This document shows, piece after piece, positions 11,246-19,203 of a stretch of 64,000 nucleotides of DNA. The position numbers and the translations under genes were made by a program. How positions within the stretch are numbered: position 1 is the first letter of the stretch; each line of letters starts with the position of its first letter. Origin of the DNA: Spirochaetota bacterium (GTDB lineage: Bacteria; Spirochaetota; UBA4802; UBA5550); assembly GCA_963664815.2 (NCBI GenBank), contig CAXXHB010000003.1, positions 640,001 to 704,000 on the forward strand, in the 5' to 3' direction. The notes beneath the pieces were generated by a model, which was given only the letters and a program-made list of their open reading frames with translations, did no database searches and was not told the origin of the DNA.

Positions 11246-11950
11246 TTAAAGTAAATCTTTTAGTTTCATACTCTCAATAATTATCCTTGCTGCCTTTTCG
11301 GACGAATGTTCTGCATTGTTAATTACGAGATGATAATTATGAGGATCTGAAACATCAAATCTGAGATATTCCTTCAGAAAAGTATCTCTCTGTTTGGTTT
11401 TATCAGCAATGAGTTTCGTGGCCTCATGCTTTGGCATATTCATTTCTTTTATAATCCTTTCGGTTCTCCATGAAAGGGGTGCTACAAGTCTTACATGATA
11501 ACCGTTTTTTATTGACCGGGTTATAATGTTTGATCCTCTGCCAACAATCACTACGTTTCCGTTAAGTGCTAGCAATGCTACAGTCTCTGCAAGTTTTTTG
11601 TGAACAGACACCTGTGGAGGAAACGAGCTGAAAGATGTTTGAAGAAGATTTGTCAGACTGCTTCTTGCAGTGCTTGTCAATGTCTCTGCGAGACTTGAAG
11701 AGAGTCCCATGTCGTCCATTACTCTGTCCAGAAGCTGTCTGTTATAAGCGGCCCATTCAGGATTCTGATTCAGTTCAGTATTGAGTATTTTAATAAGGTG
11801 TTTGGCAACTTCATATCCTCCACATCCATATTCCCTTGATATTGTTATAAATGGGAGCCGGTTACTTTTTTCTGGAACAGCCAGCTTCTCCTTTTGCTGT
11901 TTCCAATGTGTTACCTGCGCTTTGATATATTTTTCCATTGTTGCTGGCAT
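11246..11950 (-). CDS. Cytidylate kinase-like family protein (paralog 1)
   Basis: FITISREYGCGG, VVIVGRGS and DPHNYHLVIN motifs; GGAGG RBS. Confidence 0.88.
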   Translation of the reverse strand: MPATMEKYIKAQVTHWKQQKEKLAVPEKSNRLPFITISREYGCGGYEVAKHLIKILNTELNQNPEWAAYNRQLLDRVMDDMGLSSSLAETLTSTARSSLTNLLQTSFSSFPPQVSVHKKLAETVALLALNGNVVIVGRGSNIITRSIKNGYHVRLVAPLSWRTERIIKEMNMPKHEATKLIADKTKQRDTFLKEYLRFDVSDPHNYHLVINNAEHSSEKAARIIIESMKLKDLL

Positions 11951-12533: not shown

Positions 12534-13286
12534 ATGAAAGATGAAAAAATCCATAGCAGCGATTTTTCAATCATGAATAAAGATTTTGCGGTCAGGTATT
12601 CTGATTTAGACATGACATATTCTGCCACGATGCCGGCAATATGCAGCTATTTTTTTGAAGTAGGTAGCATCCATGGCAGGATACTGACCGAGGATGCGAA
12701 GCTTGATTCGGTTTTCGTCCTGACGCGGCTTTACGTGAAAATGGATATGTATCCTGAAGTTGAAGAAACTGTCTCAGTCAGGTCATGGCTCTCCCCTGTA
12801 AAAGACAAATATGTAATAAGAAATTTTATAGTAACCGGTGAAAACGGTGATATAATAGGACGCGGGAAATCATCGGCTGTTCCATTTAATCTGCATGAGA
12901 GAACAGGTGCTGCAATTCCGGAAAATATAGGAAAAGTAAAGACAGTTGATATCGAGCCCGCTACACTTCATGCATTCGAGAAACTAACCCCTGTGATGAC
13001 TTCATTGTATGAAAAATCATTCGAAGTCAGTTACTTTGACTGCGATATTTACCAGCATGTAAACAACGTGAAATATATTCAATGGTGCATAGAGGCTCTC
13101 CCCGTTGAATTTATTAAAAGTCATATGCTTAGTGAGATAGATATTAATTTCAGAACAGAGGGGAGTGTCGGAGATAAACTGGTTTTAAAAGCCGGGTATG
13201 GAGGCGGGGATGGTATATTTGTTCATACAATAAGTGATAACATAGGAGGAAGGGAACTGGCACGGATGAAAAGTATATGGAGATAA
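12534..13286 (+). CDS. Acyl-ACP thioesterase (double hot-dog fold)
   Basis: VRYSDLD and DCDIYQHVNNVKYIQW motifs. Confidence 0.88.
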   Translation: MKDEKIHSSDFSIMNKDFAVRYSDLDMTYSATMPAICSYFFEVGSIHGRILTEDAKLDSVFVLTRLYVKMDMYPEVEETVSVRSWLSPVKDKYVIRNFIVTGENGDIIGRGKSSAVPFNLHERTGAAIPENIGKVKTVDIEPATLHAFEKLTPVMTSLYEKSFEVSYFDCDIYQHVNNVKYIQWCIEALPVEFIKSHMLSEIDINFRTEGSVGDKLVLKAGYGGGDGIFVHTISDNIGGRELARMKSIWR

Positions 13287-13343
13287 ACCCGGTCAATTTA
13301 GCCCACATCTTAACCGGTGTTCTGATATCTGTAAATTTTAAAT

Positions 13344-13385
13344 AATAAAAAAACGCAGTATAGATGTACCGCGTTTTTTATTTTT
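13344..13385. terminator. Probable bidirectional terminator
   Basis: ATAAAAAAACGC...GCGTTTTTTATT between the convergent thioesterase and SET genes. Confidence 0.6.
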
Positions 13386-13409
13386 AGTGAATTGTTTTAT
13401 AAACATCTG

Positions 13410-13904
13410 TCAGGTATCCGCAACAGCATATTGTATATCGGAAAGTCCCTGAATATGCTGTAAACGGAAATTTTTCCCCTTTATGACTTTTTTGCAATTT
13501 TTTGAACCGCACTGGCATTCGAAAGAACGGAAGAGTTCATCCTCAGTAGTTTCATAATCCATTGTGAGAAACTCACCCGGTTTAATATCTCTAATGGCTG
13601 TGAAAGTCTGAGTAGCCATATCGCAATGCATGTTTGGATCACAGCTGTGAAGCACCTTCCCCATAAAAAAAGGATCATGGAGATGATACCCTGGCTGCAT
13701 CTGAAGTGTAAAGAGTGTTACTTCACTTAAAAGAACACCAGCAAATTTAAAAACTATTTCACCGGATTTAAAAGAAGCAAGTGAAATAATCCCCTCGCCG
13801 ACATCATCAGTCTGGATGATACGGAACATTTCCTTTGTTGGTTCATAATTGAACCGGGGGTAGAAGTCCGGATAAAACCGGTCCGGAACATGATCGTCGA
13901 TCAT
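13410..13904 (-). CDS. SET-domain protein with post-SET cysteine cluster
   Basis: VGEGI, KVLHSCDPN, IKPGEFLTMDY and FECQCGSKNCKKVI motifs. Confidence 0.9.
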   Translation of the reverse strand: MIDDHVPDRFYPDFYPRFNYEPTKEMFRIIQTDDVGEGIISLASFKSGEIVFKFAGVLLSEVTLFTLQMQPGYHLHDPFFMGKVLHSCDPNMHCDMATQTFTAIRDIKPGEFLTMDYETTEDELFRSFECQCGSKNCKKVIKGKNFRLQHIQGLSDIQYAVADT

Positions 13905-13909
13905 TTTTT

Positions 13910-14320
13910 TTATCTCCTTAAAATTGTGTTTTCTTTTATTTCTTCAGGTGCGAAGAATTCCTTTATCATGTCGATTACAGTATCCTCTTCGAACCATTTA
14001 CAGCTGAAAACATCAAGGTACATGTCACGCATCATATCATTTGTATGAATTGTAATTGCGCTTGTAACTATCAGCTGTACCGCAGATATTCCTTCTTCGA
14101 TACCTTCGCCGAACCTGGCAATAACCAGATCCCCGTAGGGAACCATATCAATTCGCGGAACAATTTCTTTTATAAACCGGGACACAGAATTTAAATCGAG
14201 CAGATTTTCATTGCAGGCAATGGCTGTTACCATAAGGTGTTTGCCATAGTATTTCCCGCCATTGATCTCTGTTCTTTTGTACGCATCCCGGGCTACCAGG
14301 CCATCGGCAGTTTTACTCAT
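13910..14320 (-). CDS. S-adenosylmethionine decarboxylase (SpeD/SpeH)-like pyruvoyl proenzyme
   Basis: YGKHL, GISAVQLIVT-SAITIHT, YLDVFSC. Ser79/Ser87/His92/Cys107 keep the class 1 AdoMetDC spacing; AGGAG RBS. Confidence 0.85.
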   Translation of the reverse strand: MSKTADGLVARDAYKRTEINGGKYYGKHLMVTAIACNENLLDLNSVSRFIKEIVPRIDMVPYGDLVIARFGEGIEEGISAVQLIVTSAITIHTNDMMRDMYLDVFSCKWFEEDTVIDMIKEFFAPEEIKENTILRR

Positions 14321-14836
14321 CTTCTTTTTACTCCTGAAATTATATTAATATTATGTCTTATATTAACGATTCTATAAAAATTATGATTATAAAAAAGTCA
14401 ATTATTAACTTGTATACCTGCAGTAAAATTAACATTTATTCAACTTTGTCTGAGTATAAATGATGTTTTATGTTTCACCTATATTAAAAATTGGAATAAT
14501 TTATATATAGAATATGTCAAGATAGTTGTTATATTAATTTATTTTTATTGGATTTTGTTTACTGCATAACCTGGTGCTGGTATTTTGTTAATAAAACCCC
14601 TTTAAAATGATTATTTTGGAATGCGAGTTAAATAAACACGATTAATGTAATTATATAAGTGATATGATTGCAGTGTCTGTAAGGTAAAAATGTAGTATAA
14701 TAATTTAAATTAACAAAAGTGAACCACATATATCAATTTAGGCGTAGTAATAATTATTTGTATACGAAGGATTTGAAATAGCCGCACCTCTTTTTTTATA
14801 ATACAGTGAGCTGGATGTGTATTCTATTAATAATGG

Positions 14837-15544
14837 TTATTTAATCAGAAGGCCTTTTATTATCATTCCTTCAATTATCAGTCTTGCCAACTGCTCTACA
14901 GAAAAATGACTGTCATTTAGTATAAGGTCATAATTATTCGGGTCTCTCAGGTCAAATTTAAGGAATTCTTTCATATATTCTTCTCTCTGTTTGCTTCTCT
15001 CCTGTATAAATTTGATGGCTTCAGCTTTGCTGATATTTTTAGCTTTTGCAAATTTTTCAGCTCTGTATTTTTCCGGAGCAACAAGCCTTACGTGAAACCC
15101 TCCAGCTGTTTTATTTGTTATCATGTTTGAACCGCGTCCAACTATTACAACATTTCCTTGAAGTGCCAGCATCGTGATTGTTTCAGTAAGTTTTTTGTGT
15201 ATGGCAACCTGCGATGGGAAGGAACTGAATGTTGTCTGGATTAAATCAGTCAGTTTATTACGGGCTTTTCCTGTAAGAGTTTCAAGAAGGCTTTCCGATA
15301 GGCCGGTATCTGCCATGAGTTGTTCAAGCAGCTTCTTATCATATGCAACCCATGGTGGTTCAGATTTATATTTTTCATTAATTATTTCTATTATTCTGGT
15401 TGCAACCATGAATCCGCAACAACCATATTCACGAGATATGGTAATAAAAGGAAGATGATTAGCTTTATCGGTATCTTTAATCTGTTCTTTCTGTTTTTTC
15501 CAGTATATCACCTGTCCTGTCATATATTTATCTAACACAGTCAT
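14837..15544 (-). CDS. Cytidylate kinase-like family protein (paralog 2)
   Basis: LPFITISREYGCCG, VVIVGRGS, DPNNYDLILN; ATG 15544 after GGAGG. Confidence 0.88.
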   Translation of the reverse strand: MTVLDKYMTGQVIYWKKQKEQIKDTDKANHLPFITISREYGCCGFMVATRIIEIINEKYKSEPPWVAYDKKLLEQLMADTGLSESLLETLTGKARNKLTDLIQTTFSSFPSQVAIHKKLTETITMLALQGNVVIVGRGSNMITNKTAGGFHVRLVAPEKYRAEKFAKAKNISKAEAIKFIQERSKQREEYMKEFLKFDLRDPNNYDLILNDSHFSVEQLARLIIEGMIIKGLLIK

Positions 15545-15846
15545 ATCATACCTCCATTTAAAATATTTTAATCTCAGTTTAAAAAAGTTAGCTGTGATAT
15601 GGGAGTTTTTCAATATTTTAGTATGCTATTTCTGATATTTTTATGTAATCTATAAAGCCAAATTTAAAATATTTTTTTAACATATATTTCAGTGCATGAA
15701 AAAACATTATATCATTACGTAACTATAACCGGGGAGATATAATGTCTCTTAATTAAAAAAAGCTATTGTATAAATATTTGAAAATGATAGTAAATTATCG
15801 ATTAATTCATTTGTTAAGTTCAGCAGAATGACTGTAAATTACTTGA

Positions 15847-17835: not shown

Positions 17836-19203
17836 TCAATCCACCTTTGGCAGAGTGTTGAAACCTCTCTGCAGATCAGCATCTGTTGGAATGTAATCTG
17901 TCATTGTCCCCTCGTTATACTGCATGTAGGCATTCATATCAAAATAACCTGTGCCGGTAAGGCCAAACAATATGGTTTTTTTCTCACCCGTCTCTTTACA
18001 TCTGAGTGCCTCCTGAATCGCTCCAAAGATAGCATGAGAAGATTCAGGAGCAGGGAGTATCTGTTCCAGTTTGCAGAACATGGTTGCTGCGTCGAATACC
18101 CTGTTTTGTTCAGCAGAGATAGCTTCCATATAACCATCATGATAAAGCTTCGAAAGAATTGTTGACATACCGTGGTAACGCAGTCCCCCTGCATGGTTCG
18201 GCGAAGGGATGAAATCACTTCCAAGCGTATACATCTTTGCAAGTGGTGTCATTTTTCCTGTATCGCAGAAGTCATAGGCGTATTTCCCCCGGGTGAATGA
18301 GGGGCATGAAGCCGGTTCAACCGCAATAAATCGGGGATTGGCTTTCCCGGTAAGTTTGTCCTGCATGAATGCAGACATCAGTCCGCCGAGGTTTGATCCG
18401 CCACCTGCGCATCCGATAACGACGTCCGGGTACTCTCCGAGTTTCTCCATGGCAAGCTTGCTTTCAAGGCCGATTATTGACTGATGCAGTAGCACCTGAT
18501 TCAGAACAGATCCGAGGGCATAGCGGCACTTATCGTCATGCATTGACAGCTCAATAGCTTCAGAAATGGCACATCCTAAACTGCCGCCTGTATCAGGATT
18601 TTTCGCCAGAATGGAACGACCTACTTCTGTAGTATCTGAAGGGCTTGGGATTATTTTTGCTCCATAAGTTTCCATGACAGCTTTGCGGAATGGTTTCTGC
18701 TGGAATGATACCTTTACCATAAATACTGTAAGACCAAGGCCGAAATGTGCACAGGCCATTGAAAGGGCTGTGCCCCACTGTCCTGCTCCTGTTTCAGTTG
18801 CCAGTGATGTGAGTCCCTGTGCTTTTGCGTAATATGCCATTGCAGCGGCCGCATTCAGTTTATGGCTGCCAGAAGTATTATTACCCTCAAATTTAAAATA
18901 GATTTTTGCAGGGGTATCCAGCGCTTTTTCAAGATGATAGGCGCGGATTAAAGGAGATGGACGAAAAGTTTTATAATAGTCTATTACTTCTCCAGGTATA
19001 TCGATATACCTCGTTGTTGTATCCATCTCCTGTTTGCACAATTCTTCACAGAATACCGGATAAAGGTCCTCTGTTTTCAGTGGTTGAAGTGTTCCCGGAT
19101 TCAGCAGCGGGTCATGTTGCTGTTTCATATCTGCTCTGATGTTGTACCATTGTTTTGGCATTTCATCTTCTGTGAGATATGTTTTGTATGGTATTTTTGC
19201 CAT
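17836..19203 (-). CDS. trpB2: TrpB-like PLP-dependent enzyme (TrpB2)
   Basis: SGSHKLN, TETGAGQWG, GSLGCAISEA, GGGSN, HAGGLRYHG and PAPESSHA; long N-terminus typical of TrpB2. Confidence 0.93.
   Translation of the reverse strand: MAKIPYKTYLTEDEMPKQWYNIRADMKQQHDPLLNPGTLQPLKTEDLYPVFCEELCKQEMDTTTRYIDIPGEVIDYYKTFRPSPLIRAYHLEKALDTPAKIYFKFEGNNTSGSHKLNAAAAMAYYAKAQGLTSLATETGAGQWGTALSMACAHFGLGLTVFMVKVSFQQKPFRKAVMETYGAKIIPSPSDTTEVGRSILAKNPDTGGSLGCAISEAIELSMHDDKCRYALGSVLNQVLLHQSIIGLESKLAMEKLGEYPDVVIGCAGGGSNLGGLMSAFMQDKLTGKANPRFIAVEPASCPSFTRGKYAYDFCDTGKMTPLAKMYTLGSDFIPSPNHAGGLRYHGMSTILSKLYHDGYMEAISAEQNRVFDAATMFCKLEQILPAPESSHAIFGAIQEALRCKETGEKKTILFGLTGTGYFDMNAYMQYNEGTMTDYIPTDADLQRGFNTLPKVD

Follow-up and report, generated by a model that had tools for sequence, protein, structure and literature searches.

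A SpeD-like decarboxylase and a BurB-like SET-domain methyltransferase encoded side by side in several bacterial phyla: candidate genes for the synthesis of 3-dimethylsulfoniopropylamine

Introduction

In Burkholderia thailandensis, the SET-domain protein BurB, described as a methionine-specific S-methyltransferase dependent on S-adenosylmethionine (SAM), produces S-methylmethionine (SMM) and is inactive on 4-methylthio-2-hydroxybutyrate (MTHB) and 3-methylmercaptopropionate (MMPA) (PMC12542666). It is followed in the methylation pathway to the osmolyte 3-dimethylsulfoniopropionate (DMSP) by the decarboxylase BurI; burB and burI are reported to be essential, while the transaminase gene burD and the dehydrogenase gene burE are dispensable (PMC7496086). 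BurI and the bacterial SMM decarboxylase SMMDC are described as resembling diaminopimelate decarboxylase, and the SMM decarboxylase of Spartina (SDC) as having evolved from ornithine decarboxylase with few changes (Payet et al., PMC11464771). The SMM decarboxylases known from these accounts depend on pyridoxal 5'-phosphate (PLP) and are relatives of the decarboxylases of ornithine or diaminopimelate; one of the pyruvoyl type would be new. Here we describe a two-gene operon of a Spirochaetota bacterium, located within a 64,000-nucleotide stretch (positions 640,001 to 704,000) of contig CAXXHB010000003.1, hereafter called the window. Its genes encode (i) a homologue of the S-adenosylmethionine decarboxylase (AdoMetDC) SpeD and (ii) a small SET-domain protein closely resembling BurB.

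We consider the chances to be slightly better than even that the SET enzyme converts methionine to SMM and that the SpeD-family protein, acting as a pyruvoyl decarboxylase, converts SMM to 3-dimethylsulfoniopropylamine (DMSP-amine). This proposal rests on homology, fold, conserved catalytic residues, genetic linkage, partner swapping and gene fusions, from which we infer the substrates, the processing and the fate of the product.

The SET-domain protein

The SET-domain protein was recognized by the Pfam SET model (PF00856; 33.5 bits, cut-off 22.4), while a search of NCBIfam yielded no matching model. In a comparison of the single sequence with all sequences of the PDB, the best match was BurB (9l4t; E-value 4.5e-30), followed at a distance by a match of 1.3e-7. 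With a profile of the family, BurB was again first (E-value 5.3e-40, 139.8 bits) and the next was EHMT1 (8.6e-10); overall, the best histone methyltransferases reached about 1e-7 to 1e-9 with the protein or its profile. The window protein and BurB share about 45% amino acid sequence identity (approximately 56 of 124 positions, residues 21-144, counted by hand from the alignment midline). The AF2 model of the protein (pLDDT 85.3) matches the BurB structures 9l4v and 9l4t with TM scores of 0.78-0.81, compared with 0.58-0.59 for the next best structure, ASH1L.

The canonical SET motif, NHSC, includes an asparagine that binds the cofactor. In the window protein this motif of the lysine methyltransferases is replaced by L85-H86-S87-C88, and a C-terminal cysteine cluster (C130/C132/C137) is present. 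The first-pass annotation of this DNA had reported both features correctly and regarded LHSC as the loss of the asparagine. LHSC was found in all 23 aligned members of the SET family and, since BurB itself carries it, the missing asparagine is, as judged from the aligned sequences, a trait common to the family of this methionine S-methyltransferase rather than something that a lysine methyltransferase has lost. According to the structural study of BurB, H93 and R133 contact SAM, Y124 is needed for activity, and the backbone of T73 contacts methionine (PMC12542666). The aligned residues of the window protein are H86, R125, Y117 and T66, of which H86, Y117 and T66 are invariant in the 23 sequences. 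Both proteins are small, stand-alone SET proteins of one fold (TM about 0.8) encoded together with a decarboxylase, and they have in common LHSC, the tyrosine of an MDY motif, the equivalent of R133 and a CxCx4C tail. They differ in genetic context: burB lies within a large non-ribosomal peptide synthetase-polyketide synthase virulence-factor cluster, as described, together with burI, burD and burE, while the window gene is part of a free-standing two-gene module.

MmtN, a class I bacterial methionine S-methyltransferase, catalyzes the same reaction as that proposed here for the SET protein, using an unrelated fold; it is stated to have no significant similarity to BurB (PMC12542666), and its gene is sometimes clustered with downstream genes for the synthesis of DMSP (PMC9135737). 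The methionine S-methyltransferase (MSMT) of S. mobaraensis was considered as a second SET-type example and rejected: it is given as mmtN in PMC9135737, in contrast to PMC12542666, where homology to BurB is stated.

Another SET-domain open reading frame (ORF) of the same genome (G000:C3:4199164-4199493; 181 aa, 45.5 bits; locus L003) has no adjacent SpeD homologue. Longer SET fusions are limited to two proteins, one with an ArsR-type helix-turn-helix domain (309 aa, one contig) and one with an unexplained N-terminal extension (307 aa), and are uninformative.

The SpeD-like protein

The product of the first gene belongs to the AdoMetDC superfamily (Pfam AdoMet_dc, PF02675; 53.8 bits, cut-off 25) and scores 38.8 bits with the AdoMetDC equivalog model TIGR03330, i.e., below its cut-off of 75.65. 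The top PDB matches of its AF2 model (pLDDT 92.5) are the Thermotoga maritima AdoMetDC structures 1vr7 and 1tlu (TMt 0.83-0.85, rmsd 1.9-2.0 Å). The protein contains S79, T86, S87, A88, H92, T93, N94, D95, M96 and C107. Compared with the T. maritima enzyme and with the canonical SpeD of the same genome, it has T-S in place of the E-S cleavage site and HTNDM in place of HTWPE, whose W-P-E segment we take to contact adenosine. The residues, the Thermotoga-like spacing and both replacements listed in the first-pass annotation are all present.

The Ser-to-His (5) and Ser-to-Cys (20) distances equal those of S63, H68 and C83 in the alignment with the T. maritima enzyme, in which these residues are reported to be essential for processing and catalysis (PMC10407285). 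Thirteen positions (S79, Q82, T86, S87, H92, T93, N94, D95, D103, F105, S106, C107 and K108) are invariant in all 53 members of the clade of the window protein. Because of this invariance the Ser/His/Cys triad is taken to be under strict selection, and the best interpretation of the protein is that of a functional pyruvoyl enzyme, predicted to cleave itself between T86 and S87 and to use H92 and C107 in catalysis. The residues conserved in 53 of 53 sequences, together with the recurrence of the gene pair in many genomes (see below), place the original observation beyond chance. The protein shares the fold, the context of the self-processing serine and the His/Cys spacing with class 1b AdoMetDC (1tlu, 1vr7), but it is only about 21% identical, carries T-S for E-S and HTND for HTWPE, and remains under the TIGR03330 cut-off. 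By these sequence measures it is a divergent paralogue and not a plain AdoMetDC, as the first reading of the DNA had also suspected.

The position of the clade was analyzed in a tree of 170 SpeD homologues, obtained by a quick search from few alignment columns after removal of 14 near-identical Spirochaete rows, one broken copy (locus L083, see below) and representatives outside 100-200 aa. Canonical SpeD is split from all other sequences by a long branch (support 100, length 1.75). In this tree, composed of sequences other than the experimentally characterized SpeDC, the SET-linked sequences, other representatives with the HTND motif and three fusion domains fall outside a clade of 111 SpeDC-like rows (support 95); sequences with the TS....HF pattern belong to that clade, as does the C-terminal half of a SpeD-SpeD2 fusion.

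Class 1b AdoMetDC has given rise to pyruvoyl decarboxylases of ornithine (SpeDC) and arginine (SpeDA), and Gln, Thr, Phe and Tyr are named as the residues that mark SpeDC (Li et al. 2023, PMC10407285). With the marker positions mapped by inference from alignments and not from the published figure, three of the four are found in the window clade (Q82, T86 and Y101), while all 53 sequences have Thr in place of the Phe that follows the catalytic His. Further differences from the HF group are Y25 versus W, R69 versus H, and I78 versus Y/F/W; this group was itself defined by motif, which makes the Phe contrast circular. The window protein has the fold and the Ser/His/Cys triad in common with SpeDC and SpeDA; like them, as far as described, it is an anomalous SpeD paralogue that lacks a tie to speE. 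The window clade is distinguished from SpeDC by HTND for HF, by the other aromatic positions and by its place outside the 111-row clade, and from both enzymes by linkage or fusion to a BurB-like SET protein; the term "SET domain" is absent from the available text of PMC10407285.

A canonical SpeD (124.7 bits with the Pfam model; ESH...HTWPE) is encoded elsewhere in the genome, approximately 92 kb from the operon. Also present are a 643-aa open frame, of the size of SpeA, matching the arginine/ornithine decarboxylase family, and another of 418 aa. No spermidine synthase gene adjoins the SpeD-like/SET pair, in agreement with the first-pass annotation, and the best Spermine_synth match lies approximately 870 kb from the operon. 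Because canonical SpeD, an arginine decarboxylase-like gene and a spermidine synthase homologue lie elsewhere, the SpeD-like gene is not needed for polyamine synthesis in this genome. Of five other carrier genomes, two (G042, locus L067, and G044, locus L063) have the SET-linked gene as their sole AdoMet_dc homologue, and the module therefore occurs without canonical SpeD. The canonical speD (G000:C3:559696-563013, locus L001) itself has no adjoining speE; its neighbours are a large ORF of membrane/signalling type and a SpoU-like ORF, and the best spermidine synthase match, a 514-aa open frame, is approximately 960 kb away from it.

Distribution of the gene pair

In 41 genomes, comprising that of the window and 40 relatives, the SpeD-like protein was found at 61-100% identity in 11, and a SET gene adjoins it in all 11 (the window's own locus included). 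In contrast, SET adjoins none of the nine loci holding only distant SpeD homologues (26-37% identity). Seven of these nine (L018-L024, in genomes G029-G031, G035-G037 and G040, which belong to the same order as the window's genome) are tandem SpeD pairs without SET, which probably correspond to the SpeD + SpeDC pairs of Li et al. (2023).

An alignment of 23 SET sequences was then used to scan contigs of one genome per species, which gave 185 relatives, of which the best 80 loci were kept. In 52 of the 80 loci, SET has a SpeD-like gene (49-95% identical) as its immediate neighbour in the same orientation; the decarboxylase gene comes first in 50 of these and second in two. The 52 carriers belong to Spirochaetota (22), Pseudomonadota (17), Chloroflexota (4), Planctomycetota (2) and, with one carrier each, Myxococcota, Bacillota (Paenibacillus sp. 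yr247), Eiseniibacteriota and Omnitrophota, i.e., eight named phyla in total; three are unplaced. The SpeD-like gene beside SET within the metagenome-assembled genome (MAG) of an uncultured Pseudomonadaceae bacterium (L083:5659-5895) is shortened and interrupted by a stop codon, which may reflect decay or an assembly error.

The genes around the pair are unrelated between lineages; the lineage-specific flanks encode HrpB, PBP1, glucokinase, amidase, KAS III, DUF1800/DUF1501, TerC, a TrpB-like protein, SpoIIE, an ABC ATPase, rubrerythrin and DprA. Apart from decarboxylases, no neighbour family was present in more than eight loci when 2473 ORFs were clustered. Since the flanking genes differ in this way, the pair itself is the functional unit, and the linkage that the first reading had proposed to look for in other genomes was found. 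In five loci of one lineage (L066:4690-5451, L067:4642-5502, L072:4652-5476, L078:4768-5520 and L094:4772-5527), a gene for an NNMT/PNMT/TEMT-family methyltransferase is located directly upstream of the SpeD-like gene, forming a three-gene unit, and in another (L102:5058-5933) such a gene precedes SET and there is no decarboxylase gene. The best NCBIfam match of this enzyme is the guanitoxin N-methyltransferase GntF (81.7 bits, cut-off 60), and it might methylate the product of the pair further.

Partner swapping and fusions

A decarboxylase gene was present within the fetched flanks of SET in 71 of the 80 loci, directly beside it and on the same strand in 70; contig ends cut four of the nine loci that lack one. 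Besides the SpeD-like type, two other kinds of partner were distinguished. In 17 loci, 15 of them from Chloroflexota, it is an AAT-fold PLP decarboxylase of the OKR_DC_1 (Orn/Lys/Arg) type, an assignment made with Pfam or NCBIfam for four members and by blastp clustering for the others. In 16 of the 17 this gene encodes a protein of approximately 500 aa, adjoins SET and has the same orientation (upstream in 5, downstream in 11); locus L065 has a 751-aa form on the opposite strand. In two Thiomargarita loci the gene following SET encodes an alanine-racemase-fold PLP decarboxylase; in the PDB, this protein matches Lys/Orn decarboxylases best (E-value 4.8e-53).

On a SET tree of 79 rows, built by a quick search with SH-aLRT support only, the type of partner changes at least three times. 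A clade with a support of 96 encloses both Thiomargarita SET proteins along with six that are SpeD-like-linked, and the 16 OKR-linked SET proteins of Chloroflexota form one group (support 88). From these swaps and the three types of partner it follows, as far as the sequences allow, that three unrelated decarboxylase folds serve one SET orthogroup (non-orthologous displacement). The tree is at odds with taxonomy, which suggests a horizontal spread of the gene pair.

The coupling of SET and SpeD-like is confirmed by fused proteins. The first, P0121 (285 aa; a cluster of three, on eight contigs), joins a BurB-like SET domain (49% identical to that of the window) to a SpeD-like domain (55%), and the second, P0126 (263 aa), has corresponding values of 44 and 43%. 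In P0168, a different SET is joined to a SpeD domain of the HTND type.

SpeD-homologous domains are also fused to inorganic pyrophosphatase-like, ADP-ribosyltransferase plus NUDIX, QueC, GNAT acetyltransferase and CxxCxxCC domains (proteins P0149, P0230, P0220, P0212 and P0138), which suggests more unexplored functions of the AdoMetDC fold. SpeD-like stretches are contained in the giant proteins P0164 (2209 aa; 16 matched stretches) and P0226 (2224 aa) as well.

Proposed pathway and alternative readings

On this reading, the methylation route to dimethylsulfonium compounds would start with the products of the operon, which would perform its two initial, committed steps. In the first step, the BurB-family SET enzyme would move the methyl group of SAM onto the sulfur of L-methionine, giving SMM. 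In the second, the SpeD-like protein would process itself at T86-S87, gain an N-terminal pyruvoyl group and, with H92 and C107, decarboxylate SMM to DMSP-amine, which an unlinked, unspecific aminotransferase or oxidase and an aldehyde dehydrogenase may then take to DMSP. Methylation is likely to come first because the SET protein shares LHSC with the methionine S-methyltransferase BurB. SMM is SAM with a methyl in place of the adenosyl group, on the same 3-amino-3-carboxypropyl-sulfonium core, so activity of an AdoMetDC fold on SMM would be a small chemical step; SMM also resembles ornithine in size and charge. The reported essentiality of burB and burI fits a two-gene core of this kind.

The reaction proposed for the SpeD-like protein, and its position directly after a methionine S-methyltransferase step, equal those of BurI, SMMDC and the Spartina enzyme (SaSDC). 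These three are described as PLP-dependent, while the window enzyme is a predicted 136-aa pyruvoyl proenzyme of the AdoMetDC fold; the Thiomargarita partner, like them, is a PLP enzyme of the alanine racemase fold, the fold of BurI being taken from PMC11464771. Because the known SMM decarboxylases have such origins in the accounts cited above, an ornithine-type decarboxylase beside a methionine S-methyltransferase gives the look of an SMM pathway. Our literature search, which covered few subscription journals, found no paper in which SMM or DMSP is connected with an enzyme of the pyruvoyl or SpeD type; papers connecting SET with AdoMetDC genes in prokaryotes were likewise not found.

Several observations weigh against this assignment. 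Among characterized enzymes, the pyruvoyl ornithine decarboxylases (SpeDC) appear to be closest to the SpeD-like clade and share Gln82, Thr86 and Tyr101 with it; the anomalous SpeD homologues described by Li et al. (2023; PMC10407285) showed only arginine and ornithine decarboxylase activities, and Lys/Orn/Arg decarboxylases are the enzymes that the other, PLP-dependent partners resemble most. The SpeDC kinship and the types of PLP partner fit an ornithine decarboxylase equally well. On the SET side, identity to BurB is only about 45%, and BurB Ser88, which is located between SMM and SAM, corresponds to an invariant Met81 and L90 to an invariant Lys (MGK versus SGL); the BurB variant S88A is reported to retain more than 60% of activity (PMC12542666), and the exchange may be immaterial. 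Neither the ORF clustering nor the Pfam samples revealed a conserved aminotransferase, amine oxidase or aldehyde dehydrogenase gene next to the pair, and no family expected to act on DMSP-amine or DMSP-aldehyde recurs there. Finally, most carriers are, by their record titles, uncultured MAGs of several phyla, and no report of DMSP production by these groups was found in the literature searched. Carriers in culture named by the record titles are Paenibacillus sp. yr247 (locus L079), Permianibacter sp. IMCC34836 (P0077) and Aggregatilineales SYSU G02658 (locus L061).

If the assignment to SMM is true, the AdoMetDC fold gains a third function, sulfonium amino-acid decarboxylation, after arginine and ornithine decarboxylation, and the window protein would be the first SMM decarboxylase not dependent on PLP. 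BurB has been assigned by reviews and papers, as far as these were available, either to Burkholderia alone or to "a narrow range of taxa"; the range of the BurB type would be widened to at least 185 species-level genomes, with at least eight named phyla in the best 80 of the 185 loci. Known synthesis genes are, according to the literature consulted, missing in many DMSP-producing organisms, and the two-gene signature could mark production of DMSP or of dimethyl sulfide (DMS) precursors in sediments, wastewater and soil. Most likely, this is a gene pair for DMSP-amine found in many bacterial phyla where such a pathway was not known. The finding is real and interesting, for a reason other than that given in the first-pass annotation, which saw a candidate amine/polyamine modification system: the functional unit and the divergent decarboxylase stand, while the chemistry proposed for them does not, the SET protein being BurB-like.

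The pair may also be viewed as a self-contained, horizontally mobile module with DMSP-amine as the end product, which would serve as a polyamine surrogate, a compatible solute or a substrate for GntF-like N-methylation. In this case, DMSP-amine would be a sulfonium compound of permanent charge, analogous to a short diamine, in diverse, largely uncultured users (Spirochaetota, Anaerolineae, Thiomargarita, Planctomycetota and Paenibacillus). The HTND lineage, at the base of the SpeDC-like clade, would be an evolutionary bridge along which AdoMetDC moved from SAM to the smaller sulfonium SMM and on to ornithine. We hold this extension to be possible but doubtful.

The chief rival, an unlikely reading that preserves the earlier idea of decarboxylation of a novel substrate followed by its N-methylation, is that of a SpeDC-type pyruvoyl ornithine (or lysine) decarboxylase, acting with a SET enzyme that N-methylates the diamine or amino acid to give N-methylated putrescine or cadaverine. 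It draws its main support from the grouping of the clade with the TS....HF SpeDC-like sequences, far from canonical SpeD, and the shared Gln82, Thr86 and Tyr101 would correspond to three of the four residues that Li et al. (PMC10407285) name as diagnostic of SpeDC. However, the fourth marker and the residues at Y25, R69 and I78 differ. The OKR_DC_1 and Lys/Orn decarboxylase-like partners would suit this reading, but such ornithine decarboxylase-like enzymes are, from the published accounts, the very stock of the known SMM decarboxylases. Similarly, lysine amino groups are classic targets of SET domains, and a GntF-like amine N-methyltransferase gene precedes the pair in five loci, whereas the sole close characterized relative of the SET family is described as a methionine-specific S-methyltransferase (PMC12542666) and the Asn of NHSC is missing in all 23 aligned members. 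The genome of the window, moreover, already has a gene of arginine decarboxylase size.

The reverse order of the steps is very improbable. Here the SpeD-like protein would be a methionine decarboxylase producing 3-methylthiopropylamine, which SET would S-methylate to DMSP-amine. The decarboxylase gene precedes SET in 50 of the 52 loci, a decarboxylation-first DMSP route with enzymes not known is described for a dinoflagellate, and a test of BurB on methylthiopropylamine is not reported in the available text of the same study (PMC12542666). The three partner families and the invariant D95, D99 and D103 suggest, on the other hand, a substrate with a cationic distal group and not a neutral thioether.

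Hardly credible is a plain AdoMetDC beside an unrelated SET protein-lysine methyltransferase, or one supplying decarboxylated SAM (dcSAM) to a SET aminopropyltransferase as the first-pass annotation had also suggested: the AdoMet_dc score above the cut-off, the retained catalytic triad and the NCBI-derived name "protein-lysine N-methyltransferase" of SET homologues speak for it, while it conflicts with the sub-cut-off equivalog score, HTND for HTWPE in 53 of 53 sequences, the long and fully supported branch to canonical SpeD, the canonical SpeD of the same genome, the two carrier genomes in which the SET-linked gene is the sole homologue, and the replacement of the SpeD-like gene, beside one SET orthogroup, by PLP amino-acid decarboxylases incapable of making dcSAM.

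Organization of the operon and flanking genes

The features of the operon region are listed in Table 1. As first reported, the two genes are co-oriented and separated by 5 nt (13905-13909), and the ribosome binding site (RBS) of the SET gene sits in the final codons of the SpeD-like gene; the minus-strand sequence of the junction is AAGGAGA-TAA-AAAAA-ATG. The shared terminator noted earlier corresponds to the hairpin following the SET gene with its T run; because an A run and a T run lie at its sides, the convergent thioesterase gene could use it as well. Two terminator-like sites were found in the region, compared with 1.1 expected.

Table 1. Features of the SpeD-like/SET operon and its surroundings (positions in the window).
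Feature	Position	Strand	Description
SpeD-like gene, 136 aa	13910..14320	-	ORF; class 1b AdoMetDC-fold pyruvoyl proenzyme (predicted)
BurB-like SET-domain methyltransferase gene, 164 aa	13410..13904	-	ORF; PF00856
RBS AAGGAGA of the SET gene	13913..13919	-	Read in the sequence; 8 nt before ATG
Intrinsic-terminator-like hairpin 3' of the SET gene	13348..13379	-	Stem of 13 pairs with a loop of 6, then a T tail
AT-rich intergenic region upstream of the operon	14321..14836	-	Promoter-like hexamers, not in excess of shuffled sequences
Acyl-ACP thioesterase gene, convergent	12534-13286	+	Ends just beyond the hairpin

Eleven sigma-70-like sites were counted on the minus strand, a number not above that of shuffled sequences (8.1 ± 3.0); one example, with 10 of 12 matches, is located at 14366..14339 (-). 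A regulatory RNA upstream of the operon was considered and rejected, since an Rfam scan of 13200-15000 yielded no family at the gathering score, and the weak matches to isrK (22.4 bits) and SurA (15.7 bits) are far under their cut-offs.

Only 4-6% of the sampled words of the stretch were present in RNA libraries. Contigs from two of these (X2 and X3, one study), which derive from a relative approximately 92% identical and from libraries that may contain DNA, span the SpeD-like gene and 28 nt of the SET gene, bridging of the two genes being counted from 31 nt; uncovered parts in libraries X5 and X6 carry no meaning. A complex prediction for the two proteins gave a score of 0.31, against a mark of 0.32, and was used neither for nor against their interaction.

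The operon is flanked by a cytidylate kinase-like gene on one side and by the acyl-ACP thioesterase gene on the other. The gene of a TrpB-like PLP enzyme (17836-19203, minus strand; NF009057, 672.8 bits) keeps its synteny with the operon region in several loci of related Spirochaetes; it is probably unrelated to the operon. Two paralogous cytidylate kinase-like (PF13189) genes, at 11246-11950 and 14837-15613, both on the minus strand, bracket the operon region.

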